Shown one piece after another: positions 26 through 26,199 of a stretch of DNA of 34,351 nt (position 1 is the first letter of the stretch; every line of letters begins with the position of its first letter). The stretch comes from a virus. The DNA lies in the IMG/VR virus record IMGVR_UViG_3300045988_172761, positions 1 through 34,351 of that record. One strand, given 5' to 3'. The notes under the pieces were generated by a model. It saw nothing but the letters and a program-made list of their open reading frames with translations. It was not told where the DNA came from and did not search any database. Both the position numbers and the translations under genes were made by a program.

Positions 26-41
26 GGAGGCCGGGCGATGA
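1..41 (+). CDS. 3' end of terminase small subunit gene, continuing from 33828..34351 across the junction
   Basis: The open frame from 33828 runs off the window end. Read through the repeat, it terminates at TGA 39-41, which overlaps the TerL ATG at 38 as ATGA. Confidence 0.55.
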   Translation, partial: PQVEVEGSEAGR

Positions 42-1345
42 GCGCCGAGGAGATCCGGCTCACCGAGAAGCAGGCCGAGTACGTGCGCGAGGCCCACCAC
101 CGCTGGAACTTCGCCGTGGGCGCGGTGCGCTCCGGCAAGAGCCACCTGGCCGCGCGCTACACGATCCCCAGGTGCCTGCGGGCCGGGCACAACAGGCGCG
201 GCCTGAACCTTATCCTGGGCGCGACCAAGGAGAACGTCGAGCGCAACGTGCTGGAGCCCATGCGCGACATGTGGGGGCAGGCGCTGGTGGGCGACATCAA
301 CTCACGCAACTGGGCCACGGTCTTCGGCGAGAAGGTCTACTGCATCGGCGGCGAGAACGTCAAGCAGGTCAACCGCATACGCGGCTCCGAGATCAAGTTC
401 TGCTACGTCGACGAGGTCTGCGACGTGCACCCACAGGTCTTCGAGATGCTCAAGAGCCGACTCTCGCTGCCGTACTCGGAGTGCCACGCGGCCTGCAACC
501 CGGCGGGCCCCACGCACTTCGTGAAGCGGTTCCTGGACCAGGGCGACGCGGACCCCGACATCGACCTGTGGCACCAGGAGTACGCGATCTGGGACAACCC
601 CTTCCTGCCCGACAGCTACGTGCGCGCCCTGGAGGCCGAGTACCGGGGCACGGTCTACTACGACCGCTACATCCTGGGCCGGTGGGTCAAGGCGGAGGGG
701 CTGGTCTACCCCATGTGGGAGCAGGCCCTGGAGGACACCTTCGGGTACGCCCTGGAGGACGGCACCCCGGACCCCACGCTCCAGTGGTGCGTGAGCGTGG
801 ACTACGGCACCCAGAACGCCTTCGCGGCCCTGCTGTGGTGCAGGGACCGGGAGGGGACGTGGCACGCGGTGCGCGAGTTCTACTTCTCGGGCCGCGCGGA
901 GGGGCACCAGAGGACCGACCAGGACTACTGCCGGGACCTGCTCGACCTGACCGACGGCCTGCCGCGCCCGACGGAGGTGGTCGTGGACCCCTCGGCGACC
1001 TCCTTCATCGCGGCGCTCAGGCGCGTGCCCGGCCAGCCGTTCCGGGTGCGGCACGCCCGCAACGAGGTCGAGGACGGGATCCGCGACACCGCCACGTGCC
1101 TGCAGACCGGGCGCGTGAGGGTGTCCCGGGGGCTGCCCAACCTGGCGCGCGAGTTCGCGGGCTACGTCTGGGACGACTGCGAGCAGTGCGACCGCCCGGT
1201 CAAGGTCGACGACCACCTCATGGACGCGCTGCGCTACATGGTGAGGACCAAGCGGGCCCACCGCCCGCAGGAGGCGGCCTACGGGTCGCCGTTCGAGAGC
1301 GCGCCCGACAGGGCGCTGGACCTAGCGAGGAGAGTGAACGTCTAG
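38..1345 (+). CDS. terL: terminase large subunit (PBSX/SPP1-like, headful type)
   Basis: 435 aa. The N-terminal Walker-type ATPase region (AVRSGKSHLAARY) and a C-terminal nuclease region with conserved acidic residues fit the phage TerL family. It is coupled to the upstream TerS by an ATGA overlap. Confidence 0.9.
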   Translation: MSAEEIRLTEKQAEYVREAHHRWNFAVGAVRSGKSHLAARYTIPRCLRAGHNRRGLNLILGATKENVERNVLEPMRDMWGQALVGDINSRNWATVFGEKVYCIGGENVKQVNRIRGSEIKFCYVDEVCDVHPQVFEMLKSRLSLPYSECHAACNPAGPTHFVKRFLDQGDADPDIDLWHQEYAIWDNPFLPDSYVRALEAEYRGTVYYDRYILGRWVKAEGLVYPMWEQALEDTFGYALEDGTPDPTLQWCVSVDYGTQNAFAALLWCRDREGTWHAVREFYFSGRAEGHQRTDQDYCRDLLDLTDGLPRPTEVVVDPSATSFIAALRRVPGQPFRVRHARNEVEDGIRDTATCLQTGRVRVSRGLPNLAREFAGYVWDDCEQCDRPVKVDDHLMDALRYMVRTKRAHRPQEAAYGSPFESAPDRALDLARRVNV

Positions 1346-1346
1346 A

Positions 1347-2834
1347 ATGGCAGAGAGCGACGGCACCATCCGGGGCGACTCCCGGGTGCTCACATTCCAG
1401 GACCTGGAGCGGGCGCAGGACCGCCCGGCCCTGGTCATGGACGCCATCCGCAGGCACTGCGGCGGCCGAGCGTACCGTACGGCGCGGGTGGCGGACGAGT
1501 ACGACCGGCAACGCAACGTCACGGTACGGGACTACGTGCAGACCATCTTCGACCTGACCGGATCTAAGCTCGTGGACTTCACCGCGAGCAACTCCCGGAT
1601 CGCCAGCAACTTCTTCCACCGGCTCAACACCCAGCGGTGCCTGTACTCGCTGGGCCAGGGCGTGAGCTTCATCGGCCCGGGGGACGGCGGGGAGGACGCC
1701 ACCAAGGCGCTGCTGGGGCCGCACTTCGACCGGGACCTGGTCGACCTGGCCTACCGGGCGCTGATCCACGGCGTGAGCTTCGGGTTCTGGAACCTCGACC
1801 GCCTGCACGTCTTCCCCCTGACCGAGTTCGTGCCGTTCTGGGACGAGCGGGCGGGGACGCTGCGGGCGGGAGCGCGCTTCTGGAGGCTCGACCCCTCGCG
1901 CCCCATGCAGGTGGTGCTGTACGAGGAGGGCGGCTACACCCGCTTCGAGAGCCGCCAGGACGGCGGCGACCGCGACGCCGAGCGGCTGGTCATGGTCGAG
2001 GACCGGCGCCCCTACAAGGAGCGCGTGCAGTGGACCGAGGCCGGGGGCGAGGAGGTCGTCGCGGGCGAGAACTACTCGGCCCTGCCCGTCGTCCCCATGT
2101 GGGGCAGCCGCCTCCACCAGTCCACGCTGGTGGGCATGCGGGCTGCGATCGACAGCTACGACCTCATCCGCTCCGGCTTCGCCAACGACCTGACCGACTG
2201 CGCGCAGATCTACTGGACCATCAGCAACGCCGGCGGCATGACCGACGCGGACCTCGGGCGCTTCATGGACCGGCTGCGGCTCATGCACGTGGCCGTGACG
2301 GACTCCGACGAGGGGCAGGCGGCGACGCCGTCGGTCCAGGAGCCGCCCTACTCCGCCCGCAAGCAGTACCTGGACGACATCCGCGCCCAGATCTACGAGG
2401 ACTTCGGCGCGCTGGACGTGCACACGGTGGCCGCCGGCGCGACCAACGACCACATCGACGCGGCCTACCAGCCCATGGACGAGGAGGCGGCGGACTTCGA
2501 GCAGCAGGTCTCGGAGTTCATCCAGCAGGTCCTGTCCCTGATGGGGGTCGACGACAAGCCCACCTTCCACCGCAGCCGGATCTCGAACCAGGCCGAGCAG
2601 GTGAGCATGGTGGTGCAGGAGGCCCAGTGGCTCGACCAGGAGACCATCCTGCGCAAGCTGCCGAACGTCCGCCCCGACGAGGTGCCCGCGATCCTCGACC
2701 GCCTGGCCGGGGAGGAGCAGGGCCGCATGGGCGTGGCCCGGTCGATCGCCTCCGGCGACTTCGCGCAGAAGGCGTGGCAGGACGGCGCGGCCGAGCCCCC
2801 GGCCACCGGGAAGGACGACGGTGGCGAGGAGTGA
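1347..2834 (+). CDS. portal protein (SPP1 gp6-like)
   Basis: 495 aa, immediately after TerL, with SPP1-type portal-like sequence and an acidic C-terminus. Confidence 0.8.
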   Translation: MAESDGTIRGDSRVLTFQDLERAQDRPALVMDAIRRHCGGRAYRTARVADEYDRQRNVTVRDYVQTIFDLTGSKLVDFTASNSRIASNFFHRLNTQRCLYSLGQGVSFIGPGDGGEDATKALLGPHFDRDLVDLAYRALIHGVSFGFWNLDRLHVFPLTEFVPFWDERAGTLRAGARFWRLDPSRPMQVVLYEEGGYTRFESRQDGGDRDAERLVMVEDRRPYKERVQWTEAGGEEVVAGENYSALPVVPMWGSRLHQSTLVGMRAAIDSYDLIRSGFANDLTDCAQIYWTISNAGGMTDADLGRFMDRLRLMHVAVTDSDEGQAATPSVQEPPYSARKQYLDDIRAQIYEDFGALDVHTVAAGATNDHIDAAYQPMDEEAADFEQQVSEFIQQVLSLMGVDDKPTFHRSRISNQAEQVSMVVQEAQWLDQETILRKLPNVRPDEVPAILDRLAGEEQGRMGVARSIASGDFAQKAWQDGAAEPPATGKDDGGEE

Positions 2835-2926: not shown

Positions 2927-4591
2927 ATGGCGGATCCCGCGCACGAGCAGACCGACGACATGATCGAGGAGATCCGGCAGCGGATCTCCCGCGAGTACCT
3001 GCGGGCCTATGAGGGGGCGGAGGAGAAGCTCGCCGACTACCTGCGCCGGTTCGAGGCCAAGGACCGGATCCACGCGGAGGCCGTGAGGCGGGGCGAGGAG
3101 ACCGAGGCTGACTACCGCGAGTGGCGGCGCGGCCAGATCCTGGTGGGTGAGAGGTGGCAGGAGCTGGTGGACACCCTGGCGGAGGACTACCGCAACGTCG
3201 ACCGCGTGGCGGCGTCGATCGTGAACGGCCACGCGCCGGACGCCTACGCCGTGAACCACGACTACGCCACCTTCCAGGTCGAGAAGGGCTCCAACCTGGA
3301 CACGTCCTACACGCTCTACGACCGCGCCACGGTGGAGCGCCTGATCCGCGACCAGCCGGACCTGCTGCCCGCCGTGAGGGTGGACGGAAAGCGCGACCTC
3401 GCGTGGAACCGGAGGCACATCGCCTCCGCCATCACCCAGGGCGTGCTGCAGGGCGAGAGCATGGACAAGGTGGCGCGCCGCGTCCGCTCCGTGGCCGACA
3501 TGGACTACCGCGCCGCCATGCGCACGGCCCGCACCGCCATGACCTCCGCCCAGAACGCCGGGCGCGTGGACGCGTACAGGCGCGCCGAGGGCATGGGGAT
3601 CCACGTGCGCAAGCAGTGGCTCGCCACGCTCGACGGCCGCACCCGCCACAGCCACAGGCAGCTCGACGGCGAGGTGGCGGGCATGGGGGAGAGCTTCAGC
3701 AACGGGCTGAGCTACCCCGGCGACCCCTCCGGGACGGGCAGCGAGGTCTACAACTGTCGGTGTACCCTGGTGCCCGTGGTGGACGGCGCGGACCCCTCCG
3801 AGGGCGTGAGGCACTCGAACCTGGGCGGCGTGAGCTACGAGGAGTGGCGCGGGGAGCGCGAGCGCCGCGCGCCCACGGGGGAGTCCGCCGTCGTACATAG
3901 ATACGAGGCGGCCGCCTCCGAGGGGTACGTCAAGTCGGGCTCATACCCCTCGTGGCTTCCGGGAACGGACTCGGCCGCTATGGAGGCGGTCGAGAGGTAC
4001 ACCAGCGACCAGTACCGCAGCGTCAACGGCTACCTGCGGCGGACGGGGGACTTCGCCCCGGATGGCAGGTACGGGAAGGCCCTCTCCCGCACCCCGGACG
4101 TGGAGTTCGCCCGAGCCAACCCGCTGGTTCGGCAGGAGGGCGAGAGTCTACCTGCCTTCCTGCGCAGGAGGAGGGAGGACGGGCTCTCCGACATCAGGGC
4201 GGCGGTCATGGCCGAGGACGCGGTGACCGCCACGGTGCGGGAGATGGACGCGCTGATAGATGGTTACGACCTCCCCAACGACGTGGTGCTGTTCCGGCGC
4301 GTGGACGCGAACGCCCTGCCGAACGACCCGCGATCCATAGTGGGCGGGACCTACGAGGACCGGGCGTACATGTCGACGTCCATCTTCGAGAGGAACAACT
4401 TCGTGGGGTCCGACGAGTACTTGATGAGGTTGAGGGTGCCCGCTGGAAGGGGTAGGGGCATGTACGTCAACGACATGTCCTCGTCCAAGGGCGAGCACGA
4501 ATTCGTGCTGGCGCGCGGGTCCAGGTTCCGCGTGGTATCCGTAACCGAGGAGGGAGGAAAGTTCGTGATAGACATGGAGCTTGAGGTATGA
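2927..4591 (+). CDS. minor head protein (SPP1 gp7 / Mu F-like) fused to a C-terminal ADP-ribosyltransferase toxin domain
   Basis: 554 aa. Residues ~100-290 carry MuF motifs (KQWLATLDGRTRHSHRQLDG ... VYNCRCTL). Residues ~345-554 carry ART hallmarks: YTSDQYRSVNGYLRR (Y-x-x-N-x-x-LR helix), the Arg motif VLFRRVD, the STS motif YMSTSIF, and the ExE motif GEHEF. Confidence 0.8.
   Translation: MADPAHEQTDDMIEEIRQRISREYLRAYEGAEEKLADYLRRFEAKDRIHAEAVRRGEETEADYREWRRGQILVGERWQELVDTLAEDYRNVDRVAASIVNGHAPDAYAVNHDYATFQVEKGSNLDTSYTLYDRATVERLIRDQPDLLPAVRVDGKRDLAWNRRHIASAITQGVLQGESMDKVARRVRSVADMDYRAAMRTARTAMTSAQNAGRVDAYRRAEGMGIHVRKQWLATLDGRTRHSHRQLDGEVAGMGESFSNGLSYPGDPSGTGSEVYNCRCTLVPVVDGADPSEGVRHSNLGGVSYEEWRGERERRAPTGESAVVHRYEAAASEGYVKSGSYPSWLPGTDSAAMEAVERYTSDQYRSVNGYLRRTGDFAPDGRYGKALSRTPDVEFARANPLVRQEGESLPAFLRRRREDGLSDIRAAVMAEDAVTATVREMDALIDGYDLPNDVVLFRRVDANALPNDPRSIVGGTYEDRAYMSTSIFERNNFVGSDEYLMRLRVPAGRGRGMYVNDMSSSKGEHEFVLARGSRFRVVSVTEEGGKFVIDMELEV
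3959..4591 (+). other. ADP-ribosyltransferase (C3/VIP2/exoenzyme-like) domain of the MuF fusion protein
   Basis: R / STS / ExE catalytic triad motifs in the canonical order and spacing. Confidence 0.7.
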
Positions 4592-4775
4592 AGGACAGGT
4601 TCGTGAGCCGTGCCGGGGAGTTCTCCCTGACCATGCCGGACAGACCCCGTAGGGCAGGGGAGGGGCCGGCGGAGGCCCTCGGGCGACACCCCGGGGCGCT
4701 GGTGCCGGGGCGCACCCCAGCTGGTCAGGGAGGGGCGCTCCGTGCCCCCGGAGAGGTATCGGGAGGGAGGCCGGC

Positions 4776-5114
4776 GTGGCGATCGACGGCGTGACGGTCA
4801 ACGAGGACAACACCGAGGAGGCCTCGCAGGGCATCCAACGGGCGATAGACCGCGCCCTGGAGGAGATCGGCCTGGCGGCGGAGGGCTACGCCAAGCGCGC
4901 GTGCCCGGTGGACACGGGCCGTCTGCGCAACTCCATCACCCACGTGGTCGAGGGCTCCGAGGACGCCGTGTACGTGGGCACGGACGTGGAGTACGCGCCC
5001 TACGTCGAGCTGGGCACCCGCCGCACGGCGGCGCAGCCGTTCCTGCGGCCGGCGGCGACCGGGCACGGCCCGACCTACCGCTCGATACTCGAGAGGAACC
5101 TGGAGGAGGGGTAG
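4776..5114 (+). CDS. HK97 gp10-like phage protein (head-tail region component)
   Basis: 112 aa with GTG start and RBS gggagggagg. The motif VDTGRLRNSI is typical of the HK97-gp10-like family. Confidence 0.55.
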   Translation: MAIDGVTVNEDNTEEASQGIQRAIDRALEEIGLAAEGYAKRACPVDTGRLRNSITHVVEGSEDAVYVGTDVEYAPYVELGTRRTAAQPFLRPAATGHGPTYRSILERNLEEG

Positions 5115-5126
5115 CGCGCGGGTACC

Positions 5127-5474
5127 GTGTTGCATCATAGCAACACCGGATGCAACACGGCGCAGCGCCGCGTGCGGCCGTCAATGCAACGCGGGATGCA
5201 ACGGCCCTCCCGCCCCAGGTCAGAGCGTGTTGCACCGCTGCAACTGTCAAGGCGTTGCATAGTTGCACGCGCGTCCGGTCGCGGCTGTTGTATTGTATTG
5301 CACCCCCTTTGGGGGTGCAATACAATACAACACGCCCGACGCCTGCAACGCAACGGGACAACTTGCCCTCCCGCCACCCCCGTGTTACAATTTACCGGAA
5401 GGGCCGCGAGGCACTGCGGCGAGCCGGGCCCGAGGGAGAGGGCCCTAATCCGAGGGAATGGAGCGAGCGAGACC
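5127..5474 (+). promoter_or_regulatory. non-coding region with >10 TGCAAC/GTTGCA repeats, a 47-bp hairpin (5286..5332) and an extended -10 TGTTACAAT (5383..5391); putative activator-dependent late promoter for the scaffold and capsid genes
   Basis: There is no credible ORF in this region. The repeats are visible directly. The TGnTACAAT element has no good -35. A small GGGCCC hairpin follows before the scaffold RBS. Confidence 0.5.
5286..5332. repeat. perfect inverted repeat (22-bp arms, 3-nt loop): tgttgtattgtattgcaccccc ttt gggggtgcaatacaatacaaca
   Basis: The palindrome was checked base by base. Confidence 0.85.
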
Positions 5475-6047
5475 ATGGCACTGACGAGGAAGCTCCTGCG
5501 ATCCATGGGGATCGAGGACGACAAGATCGACCAGATCATCGAGGCGCACGGCGAGACCGTGAGCGCGCTGAAGGACGAGCGCGACCAGTACCGCGACGCG
5601 GCGGAGGCCCTGCCGAGCGTGCAGAAGGAGCTGGACGACCTGAAGGCCAAGCCGGGCGACGGCTACAGGGAGAGGTACGAGAAGGAGCACGCCGACTTCG
5701 AGGCGTTCCGCGCGGAGACCGAGAAGGCCGCCGGGGAGCGCGAGAAGCGCGGGCTGTACCGCAAGCTCCTGCAGGGGGCCGGGGTGGACCCGCACCGCCT
5801 GGACGCCGTCATGCGCGTGGCCGACCTGTCGGGCGTCGTGGTCGAGGACGGGAAGATCAAGGACGCGGACGAGCTGGCCGAGGCCGCGAAGAAGGAGTGG
5901 TCCGACTTCATCGTGCGGACCGACACCAAGCCCGCGCAGGTGGACGACCCGCCCGCCGGGGGAAGCGACCCGGCCAAGAAGGAGCCGCACTCCATCGCGG
6001 AGGCCATGCGGCAGAGGATGGCGGCGGGAGCCGCCCACGAAGACTAA
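5475..6047 (+). CDS. head scaffolding protein
   Basis: ~190 aa, acidic, rich in Glu/Lys/Ala/Arg and predicted helical, directly upstream of the major capsid gene. The ATG at 5475 follows RBS gagggaatggag. The longer track ORF starting at 5127 covers the repeat region and is rejected. Confidence 0.6.
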   Translation: MALTRKLLRSMGIEDDKIDQIIEAHGETVSALKDERDQYRDAAEALPSVQKELDDLKAKPGDGYRERYEKEHADFEAFRAETEKAAGEREKRGLYRKLLQGAGVDPHRLDAVMRVADLSGVVVEDGKIKDADELAEAAKKEWSDFIVRTDTKPAQVDDPPAGGSDPAKKEPHSIAEAMRQRMAAGAAHED

Positions 6048-7841: not shown

Positions 7842-8206
7842 CCCCGGCCGCAGCGATCTATGATTTCATGGCCGGCTTCGGCATTCCCGCCTATGCGGCG
7901 GCTTCTGTGCCAGACGAGGCGGTGTTCCCGTATATCACGTACGAGCTCGCAGTCGACGACTTTTGGGGCGGGGAAGTTGCGTTGTACATGGACATCTGGT
8001 GCCGTGGTGACTCCGAGGCGGAGCCGAACGCGAAGGCGCGTGAAGTCTCAAAGGCACTAATCGGCTGCAAGTGTATCCCGTGTGACGGCGGCGGTGTCAT
8101 ACTGAAAAAAGGCTCGCCGTTCTGCCAGAGCATGGGCGACACGGCCGACGATAAGATCAAGCGTCGTCATATCAATTTGACGGCGGAGTTTATCACCTCG
8201 TTTTGA
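7838..8206 (+). CDS. neck / tail-completion (tail terminator-like) protein
   Basis: ~122 aa, sitting between the head-closure and major tail genes. Start chosen at ATGA overlap with the upstream stop; the track's alternative in-frame start is 7826. The GC content drops from this gene onward. Confidence 0.35.
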   Translation: MTPAAAIYDFMAGFGIPAYAAASVPDEAVFPYITYELAVDDFWGGEVALYMDIWCRGDSEAEPNAKAREVSKALIGCKCIPCDGGGVILKKGSPFCQSMGDTADDKIKRRHINLTAEFITSF

Positions 8207-8219
8207 GAGGACAAGTTAA

Positions 8220-8822
8220 ATGGCTAAGTTCACACAGATCCCGGCAGATACCTTCAAGAAGCTTCAGCTCAATGCCGGCATCCTCGCCACCGATTTCGAC
8301 CCGGCGACCGGCGAACTCACCGCGTCCAACATCGTCGGCGCGACGAGCGGCGGCGTGTCGTTCGAGGCCACGCCATCGTTCAGCGATTTCGGCGAGGACA
8401 TCGACAACTGCCCGAAGAACACGAAGGAACTCAAGATGCTCGACAGCTGGGAAGCCAAGCTGTCCGGCACGTTGGTGACGATGGACACGAAGGCGGCGAC
8501 GTCTGTCATCGGCGCTGCAGCCGTCGCGAGCGACGACCCGACCAAGGTCGTACCCCGCAATTCGGTCGACACCAAGGATTTCAAGAACCTCTGGTGGGTG
8601 GGCGACTACTCCGACGTCAATGAGGACGGCTCGGCTACCGGCAAGGCCGGTTTCATCGCGATCAAGCTCATCAACGCGCTGTCGACGGGCGGCTTCAAGA
8701 TCCAGTCTGGCGACAAGGCGAAGGGCACGTTCGAGTTCGAGTACACCGGCCACTACAGCATCGAGGACATCGACGTCGTCCCGTTTGAACTCTACATCAA
8801 GGCCGGCTCGGCTGATGCCTAG
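8220..8822 (+). CDS. major tail protein
   Basis: 200 aa, with a strong RBS and position upstream of the chaperone and TMP genes. Acidic, Thr/Ser-rich and predicted beta-rich. Confidence 0.6.
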   Translation: MAKFTQIPADTFKKLQLNAGILATDFDPATGELTASNIVGATSGGVSFEATPSFSDFGEDIDNCPKNTKELKMLDSWEAKLSGTLVTMDTKAATSVIGAAAVASDDPTKVVPRNSVDTKDFKNLWWVGDYSDVNEDGSATGKAGFIAIKLINALSTGGFKIQSGDKAKGTFEFEYTGHYSIEDIDVVPFELYIKAGSADA

Positions 8823-8848
8823 GCGTAAGCCCGAAGGAGGAGAAATAG

Positions 8849-9247
8849 ATGAAACTCAGTGACATCAAGGGTGACCGTGTTCTCGACGTCATCGCCGATG
8901 TAATCGACCCCATCGCGAACATGGCGCAGGACAAGGACGTCGCCGATATGTTCAAGCGTAAGGCCGTACCGGAAGGTATGGACGCGCGTGCGTTCTTCGC
9001 TGAGCGTATGCGCAAGGGCCTGCCCGTCCTGCTCAAGAGCCACAAGGCCGACATCATCGCTATCATGGCTGCGATCGAGGGTGTGACCCCTGAAGAGTAT
9101 ACCGATACGCTCGACCTCGCCAAGCTGTTCACCGACACTATGGAGCTTTTAACCGACAACGCATTCCTCGATTTTTTATCATCGTCGAAGACGGAGAAGG
9201 ACGTAGATGCGCCTGGCTCTGCCTCGGCGAATTTAACGGTCCTCTAA
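8849..9247 (+). CDS. tail assembly chaperone (gpG-like)
   Basis: 132 aa acidic protein directly upstream of the TMP, with RBS gaaggaggag. Confidence 0.5.
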   Translation: MKLSDIKGDRVLDVIADVIDPIANMAQDKDVADMFKRKAVPEGMDARAFFAERMRKGLPVLLKSHKADIIAIMAAIEGVTPEEYTDTLDLAKLFTDTMELLTDNAFLDFLSSSKTEKDVDAPGSASANLTVL

Positions 9248-9273
9248 GGGCCGACGTATTCGTCAAGTTCACG

Positions 9274-9468
9274 TTGGCCCGCTATAGGAGAGAACGGGAC
9301 GAGATGATGTTTAAGGTGTACGTCACCGACTCCCTACACCTCATGGGCCAGCATAAGTTTATCGGTCGCCGTTGGTATGACCAAGTACGGCCCAAGGTGT
9401 ATGAAGACATCGACGCCGCCGCTGTGGTGGCGGACGTTACTAAGAGGGCGGGGTTGGTGGTCGTATGA
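9274..9468 (+). CDS. small protein upstream of the tape measure gene (possible second chaperone-like ORF); the real start may be the ATG at 9304
   Basis: The frame is open from 9238. RBS aggaga precedes the ATG at 9304. Its stop overlaps the TMP start as ATGA. No slippery heptamer is present for a G/GT frameshift. Confidence 0.3.
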   Translation: MARYRRERDEMMFKVYVTDSLHLMGQHKFIGRRWYDQVRPKVYEDIDAAAVVADVTKRAGLVVV

Positions 9469-11600
9469 ATTTACTCGACCTCGCCGTCAAGATCACGTGC
9501 GACGACCAGGCGTCTGACGAGGTCGGCAAGATCGGCGACGGCATCAAGAACACATTGGGCACCGCCGCGAAGATCGGCGGCGCCGCGATCGCCGCAGCTG
9601 TCGCCGGGGTGGGCGCACTGACGAAGGCGTCCCTCGACGGCTATGCCGCCTACGAGCAAAATGTCGGCGGCATCCAAAAGCTCTTCGGCAATATGGGCCA
9701 GAGCCTCGAGGACTACGCCGCCATGACCGGTCAGACCACTGAGCAGGCAGCGGCCAAGTGGCAGGCGCTCGAGAACGCCCAGGGTAAGATGCTCCGACAG
9801 GCGAAGAACGCCTACGCCACGGCGGGGATGAGCGCGAACCAGTATATGGAGCAGGCGACTTCGTTCTCGGCCGCGCTCATCAACTCGCTGGGCGGGGACA
9901 CGGAGAAGGCTGCGGCACAGGCGCAGAAGGCCATGGTCGCCATGAGCGACAACGCCAACACCTTCGGTACGTCGATGCAGGATATCCAGTACGCGTACCA
10001 GGGCTTCGCCAAGCAGAACTACACGATGCTGGACAACTTGAAGCTCGGCTACGGCGGCACGCAGGAAGAGATGAAGCGCCTCATCTCAGACGCCAACGAA
10101 TATGCCAAGAGCATCGGGCAGGCCGGCGACCTGAGCATTGACAGTTTCAGTGACATTATCGAGGCAATCGACCTCGTCCAGCAGAAGCAGAACATCGCGG
10201 GCACGACGTCGCGCGAAGCCGCGACCACTATCGAGGGCTCCGTGAACATGATGAAGGCAGCGTGGGAGAACTGGCTCACGGCGCTCGGCTCGGGCGACTG
10301 GGACCTCGGCGAGGAGACTGACAGCCTCGTCGAGTCCATCGAGGCGGTCGCGACCAACGTCATACCGACGGTCGCCGACATCGTTTCGACGCTCATTGGC
10401 GAGATTCCCGGTCTCGTGGCAGTTGTCGGCCCAGAGCTCGCGGACGCACTGCTCGGCATCGTCGACTCGTCGGCGGACGCGCTTCGCAACGCCGCGCCCG
10501 CCGAGTTCGTCGCGGCGGTCGACTGGGTCGCGTCGCAGCTCATGGGGCCGCTCGGCGAGCTAGGTGAGGCGTTCACGTCGGTCTTCGGCGACGCCCTGTC
10601 CGGTGCGGGGGACGTGCTCGGCGGGCTCGCGGCGCAGGCGGGCGAGGTGCTCGTGCCGGCGCTCAGGGACAACCTCATCCCGGCATGCACCAACCTGCTC
10701 GAGGCAATAGAGCCGTTGATGGAGCCGATAGCCAACGTCGCGGGCGTCTTCGGCAACATCCTCGTCGCGGCGATCACCATCTTCGTCGACGCCCTGTCGC
10801 TGGTCATCCAGACCATCTCCGAGGTGATAGTCAGCGTGCAGATGCTCGCTGAGGGCGCGGGCGCCGGCATCGACGCGGCGATCGCCTTCTTCTCGCAGCT
10901 GCCCGGCGCAGTCGAAGGCTTCCTGCAGTCGGTCATCGGCTCGGTAGTCAGCTGGGCCTCCTCGATGTGGTCGCAGGCGTCCGCCGCCGGCAGCGGCTTC
11001 CTGTCGGCCATCGGCTCGTTCCTCTCCGCGCTGCCCGGCAACGTCGCCTCCTGGCTCTCCGGCGCCATCTCGACCGTCGTCGGATGGGTGTCGCAGTTCG
11101 CGAGCAACGCCACGAGTGCGGCGTCGCAGTTCGGCAGCAGGCTGCGCGACGGCCTCGCCGCGATCCCAGGCACGCTGGGCAATATCGGCGCGAACATCGT
11201 GCAGGGCCTCGTGAACGGCGTGCTCGGCGCGGCCCACAACCTCGTCAGCGCGGTCACCGGCGCCGTCGGGGACGCCATCCAGGGCGCGAAGAACCTGCTC
11301 GGCATCAAGTCACCGTCGCGCGTATTCCGCAGGATCGGCCAATACGTCATGCAGGGTGCGGCGCTCGGTGTCGACGACGACGCGGATTTGCTGCTGCAGT
11401 CCACGGACAACGCGATGCGCGGCATGATCTCGACGGCACAAGACATCAAGTACACACCCGATACCGGCAGTGCCGAGACAACGGCCTCGGTCATCGAGTG
11501 GCTTGCCGCGAATCTCGGCGACATAATCGCATCGTATACGCCGTACATCGGCATGAGGGACCTCGGCCGACTCGGGAGGAAGGCGATGGCATATGCGTAG
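9465..11600 (+). CDS. tail tape measure protein
   Basis: 711 aa, Ala/Gly-rich, helical and repetitive, in the position typical of a siphovirus TMP. Confidence 0.85.
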   Translation: MNLLDLAVKITCDDQASDEVGKIGDGIKNTLGTAAKIGGAAIAAAVAGVGALTKASLDGYAAYEQNVGGIQKLFGNMGQSLEDYAAMTGQTTEQAAAKWQALENAQGKMLRQAKNAYATAGMSANQYMEQATSFSAALINSLGGDTEKAAAQAQKAMVAMSDNANTFGTSMQDIQYAYQGFAKQNYTMLDNLKLGYGGTQEEMKRLISDANEYAKSIGQAGDLSIDSFSDIIEAIDLVQQKQNIAGTTSREAATTIEGSVNMMKAAWENWLTALGSGDWDLGEETDSLVESIEAVATNVIPTVADIVSTLIGEIPGLVAVVGPELADALLGIVDSSADALRNAAPAEFVAAVDWVASQLMGPLGELGEAFTSVFGDALSGAGDVLGGLAAQAGEVLVPALRDNLIPACTNLLEAIEPLMEPIANVAGVFGNILVAAITIFVDALSLVIQTISEVIVSVQMLAEGAGAGIDAAIAFFSQLPGAVEGFLQSVIGSVVSWASSMWSQASAAGSGFLSAIGSFLSALPGNVASWLSGAISTVVGWVSQFASNATSAASQFGSRLRDGLAAIPGTLGNIGANIVQGLVNGVLGAAHNLVSAVTGAVGDAIQGAKNLLGIKSPSRVFRRIGQYVMQGAALGVDDDADLLLQSTDNAMRGMISTAQDIKYTPDTGSAETTASVIEWLAANLGDIIASYTPYIGMRDLGRLGRKAMAYA

Positions 11601-20143: not shown

Positions 20144-20574
20144 TCCCCCGTGGACCCGAAGCCGCCCTCGCCGCGACCGTCCGGGCTGCCGGGCAGCACG
20201 TCGACCTCCGACCACCGCACGTCCTCGATCACGTGGAAGAGCACCTGCGCCAGTCGCATCCCCGGGCGAACCTCCATCGGCTCGTCTCCCATGTTGTGCA
20301 CGCACACGAACAGCTCCCCCCGGTAGCCGTTGTCGATTATCCCCTCGTTGACCAGCAGGCGGTGCTTGCGGAGGCTGGAGCTGCGGCCCGTGATCCTGGC
20401 GTACAGGCGCGGGGGCATGGAGATGTAGATGTCGGTGTGCACGTCCACGGTCTCTCCGGGCCCGACCGTCACCGGGCGGCTCGCGTACAGATCCCACCCC
20501 GCGTCGCCGGAGTGGCGCTTGAAGGGGCGGCGCGCCCCCTCCCCCAGCCTGTAGTCCACGTAGCGCGCGGCCAT
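20140..20574 (-). CDS. dut: dUTPase-like (trimeric dUTP diphosphatase fold)
   Basis: 144 aa with all five dUTPase motifs: GDAGWDLYA, GRSSSLRKH, IDNGYRGEL, GMRLAQVLF and RGEGGFGSTG. Confidence 0.8.
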   Translation of the reverse strand: MAARYVDYRLGEGARRPFKRHSGDAGWDLYASRPVTVGPGETVDVHTDIYISMPPRLYARITGRSSSLRKHRLLVNEGIIDNGYRGELFVCVHNMGDEPMEVRPGMRLAQVLFHVIEDVRWSEVDVLPGSPDGRGEGGFGSTGE

Positions 20575-21626
20575 CACTCCGCCACCTCCGCGACGCTGTC
20601 GGGGCCGGTGCCGAAGTAGCGCACGCGGCCCGTCAGGCCGGCGGCCTCCAGGAACTCCGACATGGGCGCGCTGTCGCGCACCTGCGAGACGCTGCGCGTG
20701 CCCGCGAGCGCGGGGTCCACGTAGTCGCAGAAGGTGAGAGCGACCTCGGTCGGGGCGTTCAGCAGCTCCGACTGCCGGAACAGCTCCGGGTCCCAGTGGG
20801 CCACGCGGCGGACCTTGTGGGTCACCGTCGTGCGCTCCACGACCTGGTGCCCGACGCGCTCCGAGATCTCGCCCCACTCGGTCTCGCCCTCCATGGGGCC
20901 GGAGTTGCCCGCCACGCGGATGGGGAACGTGCGACAGACCATCAGCACGTCGGTCAGTCGCGACGGGGCCACCCCGACCTCCGAGATCATGCCCGCCGCG
21001 TTGGTGTCGACGCTGGTGCAGTAGGGCCAATGGGAGTGCAGCAGGCTGAGGCCCGAGCCCTGCGTGCCCTCGATCAGCACGTCCTCCCCGGCGTCCTGCC
21101 ACCCCGCGATCAGGCCCGGGGTGTTGTTCACGCAGCACACGCTGAGGCCGTAGTCGTCGCACACGTCCCCGAACAGGCGGAACTTCTCCGGGTCGCGCTC
21201 CAGGCGGGCGATCCTGGCGGGGCCCACCCCCTCACCGGTGGAGCCGATACGGCGGTGCATCTCGCCGTTGATCCCGCCCTCCTGCTCGTGGAACCTCTCA
21301 TCGAGGATCCCGGCGCAGGAGTCGATGTACAGGCGGCTCAGGAAGTCCGGGTAGTACTGCAGGATGTGCACCAGCTCGTTCATCAGCAGGCGCATGTTTA
21401 GCAGCGCCCCGCGCCCGATCACGATCTTGGCCTCCGGGTTGATCCACCCGCACGGGATCGACTGCATGACGTGCTTAGCGCCGTGCCAGTAGATCGTGTG
21501 GCCGGCGTTGGGGGAGCCCACGCGCACGTGGACGCTGTAGCGGTCGGCCACGTGGCGGGCGATCGCCCCCTTGCCCTCGCTGCCGTACTGGCCGCCCACC
21601 AGGGCGCACATCTTTCCTCTAGACAT
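20574..21626 (-). CDS. purZ: adenylosuccinate synthetase homologue, short form (PurZ-like, 2-aminoadenine pathway)
   Basis: 350 aa. The PurA-like P-loop reads MCALVGGQYGSEGKGA, with a GSTGEGVGPA motif. It is ~80 aa shorter than cellular PurA, as PurZ is, and sits next to the DUF550, HD and PolA genes. Confidence 0.65.
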   Translation of the reverse strand: MSRGKMCALVGGQYGSEGKGAIARHVADRYSVHVRVGSPNAGHTIYWHGAKHVMQSIPCGWINPEAKIVIGRGALLNMRLLMNELVHILQYYPDFLSRLYIDSCAGILDERFHEQEGGINGEMHRRIGSTGEGVGPARIARLERDPEKFRLFGDVCDDYGLSVCCVNNTPGLIAGWQDAGEDVLIEGTQGSGLSLLHSHWPYCTSVDTNAAGMISEVGVAPSRLTDVLMVCRTFPIRVAGNSGPMEGETEWGEISERVGHQVVERTTVTHKVRRVAHWDPELFRQSELLNAPTEVALTFCDYVDPALAGTRSVSQVRDSAPMSEFLEAAGLTGRVRYFGTGPDSVAEVAE

Positions 21627-22186: not shown

Positions 22187-24031
22187 TCACGATATCCCCT
22201 CCCGGGCCTCTGGGGCGCAGTCCGGTACCGGCGCCTCGCCGAGCCATGTCGGGCCGCCGTCCCAGTCATGGAACGTGCCCCAGGACCCTCCGTACTCGAT
22301 GTCCACCCCGACCGCCGGGACGAACTCGAAGTCCTCCATTATCAGCTTGATGGTTGGCAGCGCCACGTCGAGCGCCCCCTCCGGCACCTCGAATATCACC
22401 GAGTCGTGCACCTGCATCAGCAGGTGGCCCCCTATGTCGTGGATGGCCGGGTACAGGCGCGAGATCGCCACGCGGACGATCTCGGCCACGCCGCCCTGGA
22501 TCAGGTTGGACATAGCCTTGTGAGGGTCGGCCTCCGGCACGTTGAAGTGCCGGATGCGGCCCGTCCACATCTCGATGTAGCCGTACTGCTTGGCGAACTC
22601 CTCGCACTGGGACATCAGGCGGCGGAAGCCCGGGTACAGCGCGTGGTAACGCTCCAGGTAGTCGCGCGCCTGCTCCACTGGCTCCTTGAGGTTGTCCGCC
22701 AGCTTGCGGGCCCCGATGCCGTAGATGACCGAGAAGTTGAGGCGCTTCGCCGCGTTGCGCGGGATCCCCAGCAGCTCCGCCGTGGCGGAGTGCAGGTCCG
22801 CGCCGTCCTCGATCAGCTTGCGCATGGTCGGGTCCTGTGTGTAGTGCGTGACCAGGCGCATCTCGGCCTGCTTGTAGTCCGCCTGAATCATCACCATGCC
22901 GGGCCGGGCCGTGAACACGTCCTTGACCTTGAAGACCTCGGTGGCCTTGGCCACGGCCTGCAGGTTCGGGTGCGAGCACGACAGGCGGCCCGTGTAGGTG
23001 CCGATCAGGTTGAGGTTGCAGTGCAGCACGTCATCCTCGTCGGCCTGCTCCAGGTACGGCGTGTAGTATCGGCTGTTCACCGACAGCCACCCGCGCGCCT
23101 CCTGCACCAGCCGCGCGCGCTCCGCGCCCTCCCCGCCCGCGTCGATCAGGTCCTGCAGCACCGCCGCCGCGCTGGAGGTCGTCCCCAGGAACTCGCACAC
23201 GCGCTTGGGGCTGTTGGGGTTCAGGTCGAACCCAGCGGCCTCGTGCAGGGCCTTCACGGCCCTGGTGGCGTTGCCCTCGGCCTCGGCGCGGTAGTGCTCC
23301 AGCATGGGGCGGTCCACGTGCATGCCGCGCTGCTCCATCTGCACCACTACATAGTCGTAGTAGCACGCCTGGCGGAAGATCTCCTCCAGGCCCTGGGCAC
23401 GCAGCGCCTCGCGCAGGTAGCCCATGAGCTGCCGGGTGAGGCGCACGTCGTCGCAGGCGTAGGGTTCCACGTCGGCGGGTGGCAGGACATACATCATGGA
23501 CTTCACGTTGTGCTCGGCCCTGGGGGAGCGGCTGCACTCCAGGCCGAGGCGTCGGCACTCCTCGAACACCCTGTCCTCCAGGATCGACTCCTGCAGGGAC
23601 CCGTCCCCGATCCTATATCGGTCGCACACCTCCTTCAGCTTGAACGACGGCTCGTTCTCGTTGATCAGGTGCAGGGCGAGCATGGCGTCCTCGAACTTGG
23701 GCGGGATCGCGATCCCCTCCGCCGCCAGCATGTGCAGGTCGAAGCCGTAATTGAAGCCTAGGTACGTGCGGTGCTCGTCCGAGAGATAGCGCCCCAGGAA
23801 GCCGTCAGGATCCAGCAGCCCATCGGGCAGGTTGGCACCCTGCTCGTGCCGGAACGGGAAGTAGTACGCCTCGGTGCTGGTGTCGACGGAGATCCCTATC
23901 ACGCGGTCCCGGGCCCGGCCCGGACGCCCGAAGGCGTCCAGGCCGGTGGTCTCGGTGTCTACGCAGGGGTCCATGCACGCCAGGAGGTCAGGGGCTACCT
24001 CGCGCAGCTTGTCCAGCGTGTCGACCAGCAT
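22187..24031 (-). CDS. family A DNA polymerase (PolA-like, DpoZ candidate) with 3'-5' exonuclease domain
   Basis: 614 aa. The exonuclease motif is VDTETTGLD, motif A is DYKQAEMRLV and motif C is QVHDSVIFE. Confidence 0.9.
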   Translation of the reverse strand: MLVDTLDKLREVAPDLLACMDPCVDTETTGLDAFGRPGRARDRVIGISVDTSTEAYYFPFRHEQGANLPDGLLDPDGFLGRYLSDEHRTYLGFNYGFDLHMLAAEGIAIPPKFEDAMLALHLINENEPSFKLKEVCDRYRIGDGSLQESILEDRVFEECRRLGLECSRSPRAEHNVKSMMYVLPPADVEPYACDDVRLTRQLMGYLREALRAQGLEEIFRQACYYDYVVVQMEQRGMHVDRPMLEHYRAEAEGNATRAVKALHEAAGFDLNPNSPKRVCEFLGTTSSAAAVLQDLIDAGGEGAERARLVQEARGWLSVNSRYYTPYLEQADEDDVLHCNLNLIGTYTGRLSCSHPNLQAVAKATEVFKVKDVFTARPGMVMIQADYKQAEMRLVTHYTQDPTMRKLIEDGADLHSATAELLGIPRNAAKRLNFSVIYGIGARKLADNLKEPVEQARDYLERYHALYPGFRRLMSQCEEFAKQYGYIEMWTGRIRHFNVPEADPHKAMSNLIQGGVAEIVRVAISRLYPAIHDIGGHLLMQVHDSVIFEVPEGALDVALPTIKLIMEDFEFVPAVGVDIEYGGSWGTFHDWDGGPTWLGEAPVPDCAPEAREGIS

Positions 24032-25626: not shown

Positions 25627-26199
25627 CTACTTCTCGTCCACGTACGTCGCGGCCTCGTCGGCCACGTGCAGCAGCCAGGCCAGCGGGTTAGCCGCGTAGA
25701 CCGGGCTGGGGTTGCTGTAGCTGGTCGCGTCGAACTGCCCCATGTGGCAGTTGATCGCCGCCGCCTCCTCCGGGGACAGCTCCACGAAGTGCTGCACCAG
25801 GTAGACGCTCTTGGACCCGTGCCCACCGAAGGGGAACTTCTCCTCGAACTTGTAGCAGGGCACGCGGTGCCACTGCCCGCGCTCGTCCTTGACGTTGCGG
25901 AAGTCCCGCACGTAGCAGTCCGCCTTGCACACGTCGTGCAGCAGGGCGCACAGAGCCATCGACTCCTTGGCCAGGCCGAACCCGAGGCCGGCGTCGAGCT
26001 GCAGCAGGCGGTCGCACACCGCCAGCGAGTGCTCCACCAGCCCGCCCTCGTGCGCCCCGTGCCAGCGGGTACTGGCGGGGGCCTGGAAGAAGTCCGAGCC
26101 CTCCAGCCAGGCGATCAGGGCCTCCACCCCCTCCCTGCCGGTCGCGCGCAGCCTGTCCTCGAACTCGGAGGCGGCGTCGCTCAGAACCTCGTTTGCCAT
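25627..26199 (-). CDS. HD-domain phosphohydrolase (DatZ-like dNTP triphosphohydrolase candidate)
   Basis: 190 aa. HD motifs are HEGGLVEHSL and LLHDVCK. RBS agaggagaag. It is the first gene of the operon behind promoter 26230..26259. Confidence 0.75.
   Translation of the reverse strand: MANEVLSDAASEFEDRLRATGREGVEALIAWLEGSDFFQAPASTRWHGAHEGGLVEHSLAVCDRLLQLDAGLGFGLAKESMALCALLHDVCKADCYVRDFRNVKDERGQWHRVPCYKFEEKFPFGGHGSKSVYLVQHFVELSPEEAAAINCHMGQFDATSYSNPSPVYAANPLAWLLHVADEAATYVDEK

Follow-up and report, generated by a model that had tools for sequence, protein, structure and literature searches.

The gene at positions 2927..4591 of IMG/VR virus record IMGVR_UViG_3300045988_172761 encodes a phage head protein fused to an ADP-ribosyltransferase (ART). 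The stretch of DNA analysed, called the window below, covers positions 1 to 34,351 of that record (34,351 nucleotides). The N-terminal ~313 residues of the product are a minor head module of the SPP1-gp7/MuF type, and the portal gene immediately upstream is of SPP1 type. By sequence and fold, an intact ART of the R-S-E (C3/Vip2) type makes up the C-terminal ~210 residues. This tail and the first ~22 codons of a small, translationally coupled downstream open reading frame (ORF) form a recombining cassette that is swapped among closely related phages. The fusion protein is probably a MuF-family polymorphic effector of an apparently lytic siphophage, which would be packaged in the head, ejected with the DNA and used to ADP-ribosylate the host early in infection. 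This role would resemble that of T4 Alt, a virion-packaged ADP-ribosyltransferase that modifies host proteins at the onset of infection.

A MuF head protein with an ADP-ribosyltransferase tail

The fusion gene is divided as follows. Confidence of the structure model is given as the predicted local distance difference test score (pLDDT).

2927..4591, plus strand: MuF-ART fusion gene, 554 residues plus stop, ATG start (ORF listing; Pfam Phage_Mu_F and ADPrib_exo_Tox)
2927..3865, plus strand: conserved MuF/SPP1-gp7 module, residues 1-313, with 80-100% DNA identity to relatives regardless of their tail
3416-3769, plus strand: Pfam core of the MuF module, residues 164-281
3752-3763, plus strand: NCRC motif, residues 276-279
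3797..3961, plus strand: low-confidence linker, residues 291-345, pLDDT 30-46
3833-3850, plus strand: junction motif SYEEW(R/K), residues ~303-308, inside the linker; the tails diverge here
3962..4588, plus strand: ART domain of R-S-E type and C3/Vip2/Certhrax fold, residues 346-554 (PF03496, PDB sequence matches, model)
3998..4039, plus strand: N-terminal ART helix Y358..R371 (YTSDQYRSVNGYLR), aligning with Vip2 'DGYARQDYKEINNYLR'; Y358 and R371 are invariant
4046..4216, plus strand: helical insertion of ~45-55 residues (residues ~374-430), placed after the first helix and ahead of the catalytic Arg
4295..4297, plus strand: catalytic Arg R457, invariant in 23 sequences and aligning with the Arg of Lmo0066 'LYRG'
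4373..4381, plus strand: S483-T-S485 motif, aligning with Vip2 'YMSTSL'; S483 is invariant
4493..4501, plus strand: E523-H-E525, the ExE of the ADP-ribosylating turn-turn (ARTT) loop, aligning with Vip2 'SEKE'; E525 is invariant

The ribosome-binding site GGAGGTGG precedes the ATG, and the MADPAHE start is common to the MuF-ART homologues in their alignment. One database protein, P0001, is identical to the 554-residue product and carries the JGI name SPP1 gp7 family head morphogenesis protein. The N-terminal half is recognised by Pfam as Phage_Mu_F (PF04233; residues 164-281, E 2e-19, 70.8 bits against a cut-off of 29.6) and by NCBIfam as TIGR01641 phageSPP1_gp7 (51.6 bits against a cut-off of 39.65). 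SPP1 gene 7 itself is 27% identical to residues 1-317 (tblastn, E 1e-15). Matches of the fusion protein in PHROGs fall in head-morphogenesis and minor-head families and in phrog_3895, 'ADP-ribosyltransferase exoenzyme toxin' (E 1.5e-18). In the alignment of relatives, C277, R278 and C279 of the NCRC motif are invariant.

This motif is interrupted in one relative, P0088 (812 residues), where an insertion of ~260 residues separates NC from RC (…EVYNC-FLGDVSV…SSIIPGMDNGIFAIAKN-CRCTMVP…). The insertion, which falls in the most conserved MuF motif, looks like an intein.

In the C-terminal domain, residues 431-542 match ADPrib_exo_Tox (PF03496) with 62.1 bits (E 5.8e-17), the gathering score being 23.4. 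PDB sequences matched with phmmer include Lmo0066, Vip2, Certhrax and C3larvin. In these alignments 'YMSTSIF' pairs with 'YMSTSLS' of Vip2, 'GEHEFVL' with 'SEKEILL' of Vip2, and 'LFRR' with 'LYRG' of Lmo0066; the YxxxN.YLR helix pairs with 'YKEINNYLR' of Vip2. Across 23 ART-bearing relatives R457, S483, E525, Y358, R371, G473 and D478 are invariant.

The alignment of these 23 relatives was also used to build an AlphaFold model of the fusion. The MuF module is modelled as helical with moderate confidence, residues 291-345 have pLDDT below 50, and residues 350-554 of the ART domain have pLDDT 80-90. The model thus shows two domains joined by a linker of ~55 residues that is predicted to be flexible. 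A Foldseek search of PDB with the model gave 110 fold matches at E<=1e-3, and the best 50 of the 110 are all R-S-E ADP-ribosyltransferases. The top matches are Lmo0066 (8za7_B), Certhrax, VahC, C3bot, Vip2, C2-I and SpvB. The Foldseek probability is 1.00 for C3bot, Vip2, Certhrax, C2-I and Lmo0066, and the target-normalised template modelling (TM) score is 0.6-0.75 for single-domain PDB targets.

A first-pass annotation, made by reading the sequence, had proposed a MuF protein fused to an ART domain with its catalytic signature in canonical order. Both domain calls are borne out by Pfam, TIGR01641 and the PDB sequence and fold matches, at levels well above what chance would give. The order R, STS, ExE can be aligned to the Arg of Lmo0066 and to the STS and ExE of Vip2, and each motif lies at the residues that had been named for it: NCRC, the helix (YTSDQYRSVNGYLRR, 358-372), FRRV (456-459), STS (483-485) and EHE (523-525). 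The profile searches and structure model that the annotation had suggested returned an ART fold and alignable motifs; neither a non-ART fold nor unalignable motifs were seen. Two details can be refined. The catalytic Arg was rightly placed in FRRV, where R457 is the invariant one of the two arginines. In the ExE motif E525 is invariant, but E523 is Glu in the window's subgroup only, and the sister subgroup has Q-x-E.

The helical insertion distinguishes this ART from its neighbours. It is modelled as helices with pLDDT ~86-92, and the 23-sequence alignment shows that it is missing from sister ART subgroups. The ART tail family comprises at least three subgroups with a mutual identity below 40%. 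Among 1.84 billion representatives searched exhaustively with HMMER there are 1,480 ART relatives, of which the best 150 are all at most 44% identical. Among these 150, only ~8 cover the whole ART domain, and five of the six full-coverage relatives scanned with Pfam are MuF fusions too. In the wider MuF-linked ART subfamily, which is 27-35% identical, the insertion is kept with its W/F-AP-DG-KYGS, PGES and RR motifs, and all insertion-bearing members have E-x-E. Two insertion-bearing MuF-ART relatives are found on contigs of 31% and 36% GC.

A cassette exchanged at the MuF C-terminus

The tails of closely related MuF proteins differ completely. Among the 120 best full-length matches, similarity to the window protein ends at residues 304-343, mostly 308-325, in relatives that lack the ART. 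In 96 relatives the MuF module shares 75% identity or more (75-93%) with that of the window; 23 of them are tail-less and 73 have tails, and the 73 tails make up 11 mutually unrelated families. Nearly all tail families open with (E/Q)W(R/K) and diverge thereafter. The full junction motif, (G)(M/V)SYEEW(R/K), stands just before the divergence point and is similar to the demarcation motifs known from other polymorphic toxins.

At the DNA level the exchange has sharp breakpoints, at ~3867 and ~4655. Compared with relatives that carry another tail or none, identity is 80-100% through nucleotide 3866, then ~40-50% (unalignable), and returns to 80-98% from ~4650-4710. The exchanged segment extends beyond the fusion gene, as can be seen from the following features.

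3867..4655, plus strand: swapped cassette, consisting of the ART tail and the ~22 codons that open the small downstream ORF (sliding DNA identity, third-position G+C)
4588..4794, plus strand: small ORF of 68 residues, in ATGA overlap with the ART stop codon
4656..4775, plus strand: GC-rich intergenic stretch common to tail-less relatives, alignable with loci L004 and L013, which holds the ribosome-binding site of the next gene

Direct exchange of tails between MuF backbones is indicated by two comparisons. P0001 and the relative P0005 are 91% identical in the MuF module and 53% in the tail, while P0005 and P0090 are 44% identical in the MuF module and 86% in the tail. The two parts also differ in G+C content at third codon positions (GC3), which is 0.977 for the MuF module and 0.883 for the tail cassette (Fisher p 7e-6), as would fit a tail acquired from a source of lower GC. 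The label of polymorphic toxin given in the first-pass annotation is thus well founded, since 11 tail families, or no tail, occur on near-identical MuF modules with defined breakpoints, and the same tail occurs on divergent backbones.

Ten further tail families are found on the same MuF module (relatives P0008-P0120). Most have no Pfam family, and some have HExxH motifs or weak matches to anthrax lethal factor (ATLF) or peptidases. Metallopeptidase-like tails with HExxH make up clusters 3, 4, 12 and 15. Tail size varies from 295-387 residues in cluster 2 (for instance P0011) to ~165 in cluster 5 (P0010) and 84-86 in cluster 8. A search for divergent ARTs among the other tails without Pfam match gave a weak match for cluster 7 only (E 6e-4, probability 28%) and none for clusters 5, 6 and 10. 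The ten families are candidates for new capsid-borne effectors.

The small ORF is a chimera. Its cassette-specific part covers ~4588-4655 (MKDRFVSRAGEFSLTMP...), or ~22 codons, and its low-complexity remainder reads through the shared intergenic region. The GC3 of the whole ORF is 0.78, against 0.93-0.98 in the adjoining genes. The comparison of this ORF is based on six loci with the same tail type; no further loci of this type were found in IMG/VR (by single sequence or by alignment) or in the JGI metagenomes (by alignment). The N-terminal 17 residues, M[K/S]DRFVS[R/K/E][A/P/Q]GEF[S/V]LT[M/L/V]P, are kept in all six. Variable columns in this part fall 4/3/9 at codon positions 1/2/3, so change is mostly synonymous, and gap lengths in the ORF differ by multiples of three in five of the six loci. 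In L010, which has the divergent backbone, the frame is lost in the shared 3' stretch, downstream of the cassette-specific part. The N-terminus has nevertheless been transferred together with the ART tail onto the 44%-identical MuF backbone of this locus. The cassette part is not present in the tail-less locus L004 or in L013.

Other cassettes can also have coupled ORFs: a Cys-rich one of 61 residues in L009, one of 52 in L011 and one of 74 in L012. None is coupled to the tail type of L013 or present in the tail-less L004. ORFs coupled by ATGA, 91 and 82 residues long, also occur in remote members of this ART subfamily. The small ORFs of L014 and L015 cannot be aligned to each other, and a likeness between small ORFs ('KDRFVSRAGEF' and 'KDKFDGEEVEF') was dismissed as too short. 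Neither the ORF at 4588..4794 nor the small ORFs of other cassettes match a Pfam family. A conserved RNA structure in 4650-4780 was rejected as well, its stability being no better than that of shuffled sequence (z +1.17), and no terminator is predicted there.

In its position the small ORF bears the signature of the toxin-partner pairs described for MuF toxins (PMC5576092, PMC11699363). The ~22 cassette-specific codons are a candidate for encoding a partner or immunity peptide. The first-pass annotation had stated that no obvious immunity gene follows and that the downstream ORF is of low complexity. The second statement fits the intergenic remainder, but the first is too strong, as ~22 codons are linked to the cassette, change mostly synonymously and travel with the tail.

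Genome context and probable mode of action

The fusion gene lies in the packaging and head region of the phage, next to the following genes.

38..1345, plus strand: terminase large subunit of the packaging module (Pfam Terminase_3, Terminase_6N)
1347..2834, plus strand: SPP1-type portal gene (Pfam SPP1_portal, E 1.7e-22), the presumed docking partner of MuF
4776..5114, plus strand: HK97-gp10-like/Neck1-type gene (PF04883, E 5e-10; phrog_5, E 2.3e-22), directly downstream of MuF-ART

The gene order is terminase, SPP1-type portal, MuF-ART, gp10-like gene, scaffold and capsid, and it is kept in 11 related loci. The site of the gp10-like (tail completion) gene at 4776-5114, between MuF and scaffold, is unusual for a connector, and this position is kept in all related loci. 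An endolysin gene is also on the plus strand. The minus-strand half encodes PolA, a primase-polymerase/helicase, an SNF2 helicase, a PD-(D/E)XK nuclease, AAA_24, DUF669 and HD-domain proteins, and a short homologue of adenylosuccinate synthetase.

The ORFs scanned in the window yielded no domain of an integrase, recombinase or repressor, and the 185,579 species-representative genomes searched contain no close copy as a prophage. Together with the replication genes of the phage itself, this makes the siphophage look lytic. The single match in the genome scan is distant (49% identity) and belongs to a metagenome-assembled genome (MAG) of Lachnospiraceae. The MuF and capsid proteins are nearest to sequences of Firmicutes and human-faecal phages.

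The proposed mechanism starts with assembly. The MuF module would bind the portal as SPP1 gp7 does, so that a few copies of the fusion come to lie inside the procapsid; SPP1 gp7 is targeted by the portal to the procapsid interior and supports the initiation of infection (PMC6316719). No prohead protease gene is present, and the enzyme therefore probably stays tethered to MuF. At infection the fusion protein would leave the capsid with the DNA, as suggested by SPP1 gp7 and by the delivery already proposed for MuF toxins (PMC6316719, PMC5576092, PMC9503650). Early in infection it would use host NAD+ to mono-ADP-ribosylate host proteins. Arginine is the likely acceptor because the ARTT loop has E-x-E, as in the arginine-specific Bxa (PMC11699363). 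The outcome would be a takeover like that by T4 Alt, or an anti-defence function; the apparently lytic lifestyle favours either of these over bacterial competition. Fast turnover of the tails would then mirror an arms race with the host.

Several points weigh against this proposal. A few kb of the genome are probably missing from the window (contigs of relatives measure 33-38 kb) and many small ORFs are unannotated, leaving room for a lysogeny module. The link to a host consists of one distant Lachnospiraceae MAG match. For arginine specificity the E-x-E rule is the sole ground. Finally, cassette-linked small ORFs fit the toxin-immunity logic of competition equally well.

The last point leads to the best-surviving alternative, in which the phage is temperate and its protein a MuF toxin of the classical kind. 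It would be a growth-inhibiting toxin that serves lysogen populations against non-immune competitors, or a modulator of the choice between lysis and lysogeny, with the small ORF providing immunity; these are the two models of Jamet 2017. The architecture, the polymorphic tails and the cassette-linked ORFs match the MuF toxin-immunity pattern (PMC5576092, PMC11699363). This explanation is unlikely, however, for a phage with its own replication machinery in which neither integrase nor repressor was detected, and for which the 185,579 genomes hold no prophage copy apart from the 49%-identity match. Moreover, an immunity gene would have to fit in ~22 cassette-specific codons, and tail-less variants are common (23 of 96).

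Alternatively, the ART may act late in the producing cell, for instance on host or phage proteins during assembly, or be released at lysis, MuF being merely a context for expression or a scaffold. The gene does lie in a late packaging operon, and an ATGA-coupled partner ORF suggests that activity needs control in that cell. The recurrent fusion of many unrelated enzymes to a portal-binding MuF is nevertheless explained most simply by targeting to the capsid (PMC6316719, PMC9503650), which makes purely late action improbable.

It is about as improbable that the enzyme modifies something other than protein arginine. Its substrate could then be a different residue, a small molecule or a nucleic acid, with the pierisin/Scabin class and RNAylation of the T4 ModB type as models. 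R-S-E ARTs do include DNA-modifying enzymes, the subfamily-specific insertion could form an unusual substrate site, and Q-x-E in the sister subgroup shows that specificity shifts within the family. In this protein and in every insertion-bearing member of the subfamily the motif is E-x-E, however, and the nearest structures are protein-modifying toxins.

Least probable is an effector freed from lysing gut bacteria that ADP-ribosylates proteins of the animal host to the gain of the bacterial population: Bxa provides a precedent (PMC11699363), human faecal samples are the source of the capsid homologue nearest in sequence (71% identity) and the closest viral structures to the fusion protein are gut-virome MuF proteins, yet Bxa is encoded by a prophage whose surviving lysogen benefits, the phage here looks lytic, and the match to the Bxa PHROG is weak (residues 516-551 only, E 1e-4).

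Some further observations concern the genome as a whole. The phage has a G+C content of 69%, with a dip to 0.59-0.60 at 8001-10000 (the major-tail/chaperone region) against 0.65-0.72 elsewhere. No tRNA and no Rfam family were found in the window. No deposited phage is close at the DNA level; the sole matches to deposited phages are stretches of ~80-130 nucleotides within 9929-10082, 81-88% identical to tape-measure genes of Microbacterium phages.

The 360 nucleotides (5115-5477) that separate the gp10-like gene from the scaffold gene are non-coding and dense in direct and inverted motifs of the TTGCA/TGCAAC type. They include a near-perfect 30-nucleotide hairpin at 5278-5340 and a sigma-70-like promoter with extended -10 at 5363-5391 (TTGCCC, 17 nucleotides, TG-TACAAT; one found against 0.1 expected). 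The stretch looks like a regulated late promoter or an operator array. It is present in some relatives (L004, L008, L009 and L011-L013, with a gap of ~340-380 nucleotides at this position), while the gap is only ~95 in L002, L003 and L007, and ~125 in L010.

Three minus-strand genes, at 20574-21626, 22187-24031 and 25627-26199, encode the adenylosuccinate-synthetase homologue (350 residues), a family-A DNA polymerase with 3'-5' exonuclease, and the HD-domain protein. Such a trio is typical of phages with 2-aminoadenine in their DNA (Z-genome phages), where the proteins are PurZ, DpoZ and DatZ. Against phrog_1211 the synthetase gives E 8.7e-68, and with the NCBIfam PurZ model, whose cut-off is 300, it scores 233 bits; archaeal-type PurA is also below its cut-off. 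The polymerase scores 183 bits with DpoZ_1, below 500. The nearest phage homologues of the synthetase are 'PurA-like' genes of Microbacterium, Gordonia, Arthrobacter, Vibrio and Acinetobacter phages. These matches are no more than a lead to a 2-aminoadenine genome.

A bolder form of the injected-effector proposal can be stated, which is tentative and rather doubtful as a whole. The MuF C-terminus would be a hypervariable slot for injected effectors in an apparently lytic, possibly 2-aminoadenine lineage, whose tails, at least 11, would serve takeover or anti-defence and not competition. The insertion-bearing ART would hit a specific host target, and the cassette-linked mini-peptide M[K/S]DRFVS..GEF.LT.P would act as its cognate inhibitor, of unusually small size, or as a packaging chaperone.

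Comparison with known systems

MuF polymorphic toxins. MuF toxins were surveyed in 2017, when ARTs made up ~14% of those surveyed and ART activity had been demonstrated for EFV of a prophage of Enterococcus faecalis V583 (PMC5576092). In that survey the toxins were confined to temperate phages and prophages, most of them from Firmicutes (PMC5576092). MuF-ART fusions were surveyed again in 2022 (PMC9503650). The window protein shares with the toxins of Jamet 2017 the N-terminal MuF domain encoded in the packaging module, the variable C-terminal toxin domain and the small downstream ORF. It differs in belonging to an apparently lytic phage of high GC, and its downstream ORF is mostly intergenic read-through. 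In the scanned ORFs of a window that may be a few kb short, the phage does not appear as a temperate phage or prophage. Lytic actinophages with MuF-ART are known (PMC7302621), so a temperate lifestyle describes the class but does not define it.

Bxa. This MuF-ART of Bacteroides stercoris phage PhiBxa is arginine-specific and has been studied biochemically by Alexei et al. 2024 (PMC11699363). Like the window protein, it belongs to a polymorphic family, has an arginine transferase of E-x-E type and is adjoined by small ORFs, which are neutralising in Bxa. Unlike the window protein, it is prophage-encoded and is accompanied by a hydrolase of ADP-ribosylhydrolase (ARH) type, BAH, and an inhibitor, Bsi; no ARH or macro-domain gene is present in the window. 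The two proteins are barely similar in sequence (phrog_16625, E 1e-4 over 36 residues, 516-551).

Microbacterium phage fusions. The lytic Microbacterium phages Percival, IAmGroot, Goodman and Johann carry MuF-VIP2 fusions (PMC7302621), and genes of Microbacterium phages are routinely annotated as 'ADP-ribosyltransferase domain and MuF-like fusion protein'. The two-domain architecture in lytic siphophages of high GC is the same, and Goodman and Johann also have a PurA-like gene, PolA and a primase-polymerase. In contrast, identity is 29-35% over part of the ART, no similarity to the helical insertion region is detectable, and the MuF module of the window is closest to Firmicutes phage proteins.

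T4 Alt. The proposed action is alike: a head-borne ART is injected with the DNA and modifies arginines of host proteins at the onset of infection (PMC5576092, PMC9503650). Alt is nonetheless a separate head protein with its own packaging targeting and no MuF fusion, and there is no Alt match among the best 50 viral fold matches. The analogy is functional only.

Bacterial toxins. The ARTs C3, Vip2, iota, Certhrax and Lmo0066 share the fold and the positions of R, S-T-S and E-x-E, but are 14-20% identical in fold alignments and lack the extra helical insertion. They rely on secretion or on binary-toxin translocation, whereas delivery by the phage capsid is proposed here. Lmo0066 is paired with an ARH immunity protein, according to the title of PDB entry 8za7, which the window protein is not.

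The first-pass annotation had called MuF-toxin fusions a described class, and they have indeed been both studied and annotated (PMC5576092, PMC11699363, PMC7302621). Publications already cover the MuF-ART architecture, the hypothesis of injection and the logic of toxin and immunity. Thus, the fusion opens no new class but adds to a known one, bringing a well-supported MuF-ART, catalytically intact by sequence and fold, to an uncultivated phage lineage of high GC. It is also a very clear natural case of cassette swapping at the MuF C-terminus, with many tails, tail-less forms, defined breakpoints and coupled mini-ORFs. The set of tails in its relatives can be mined for new capsid-delivered effectors and their small partner ORFs. 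Finally, it supports the view that MuF-borne effectors are not limited to temperate phages.

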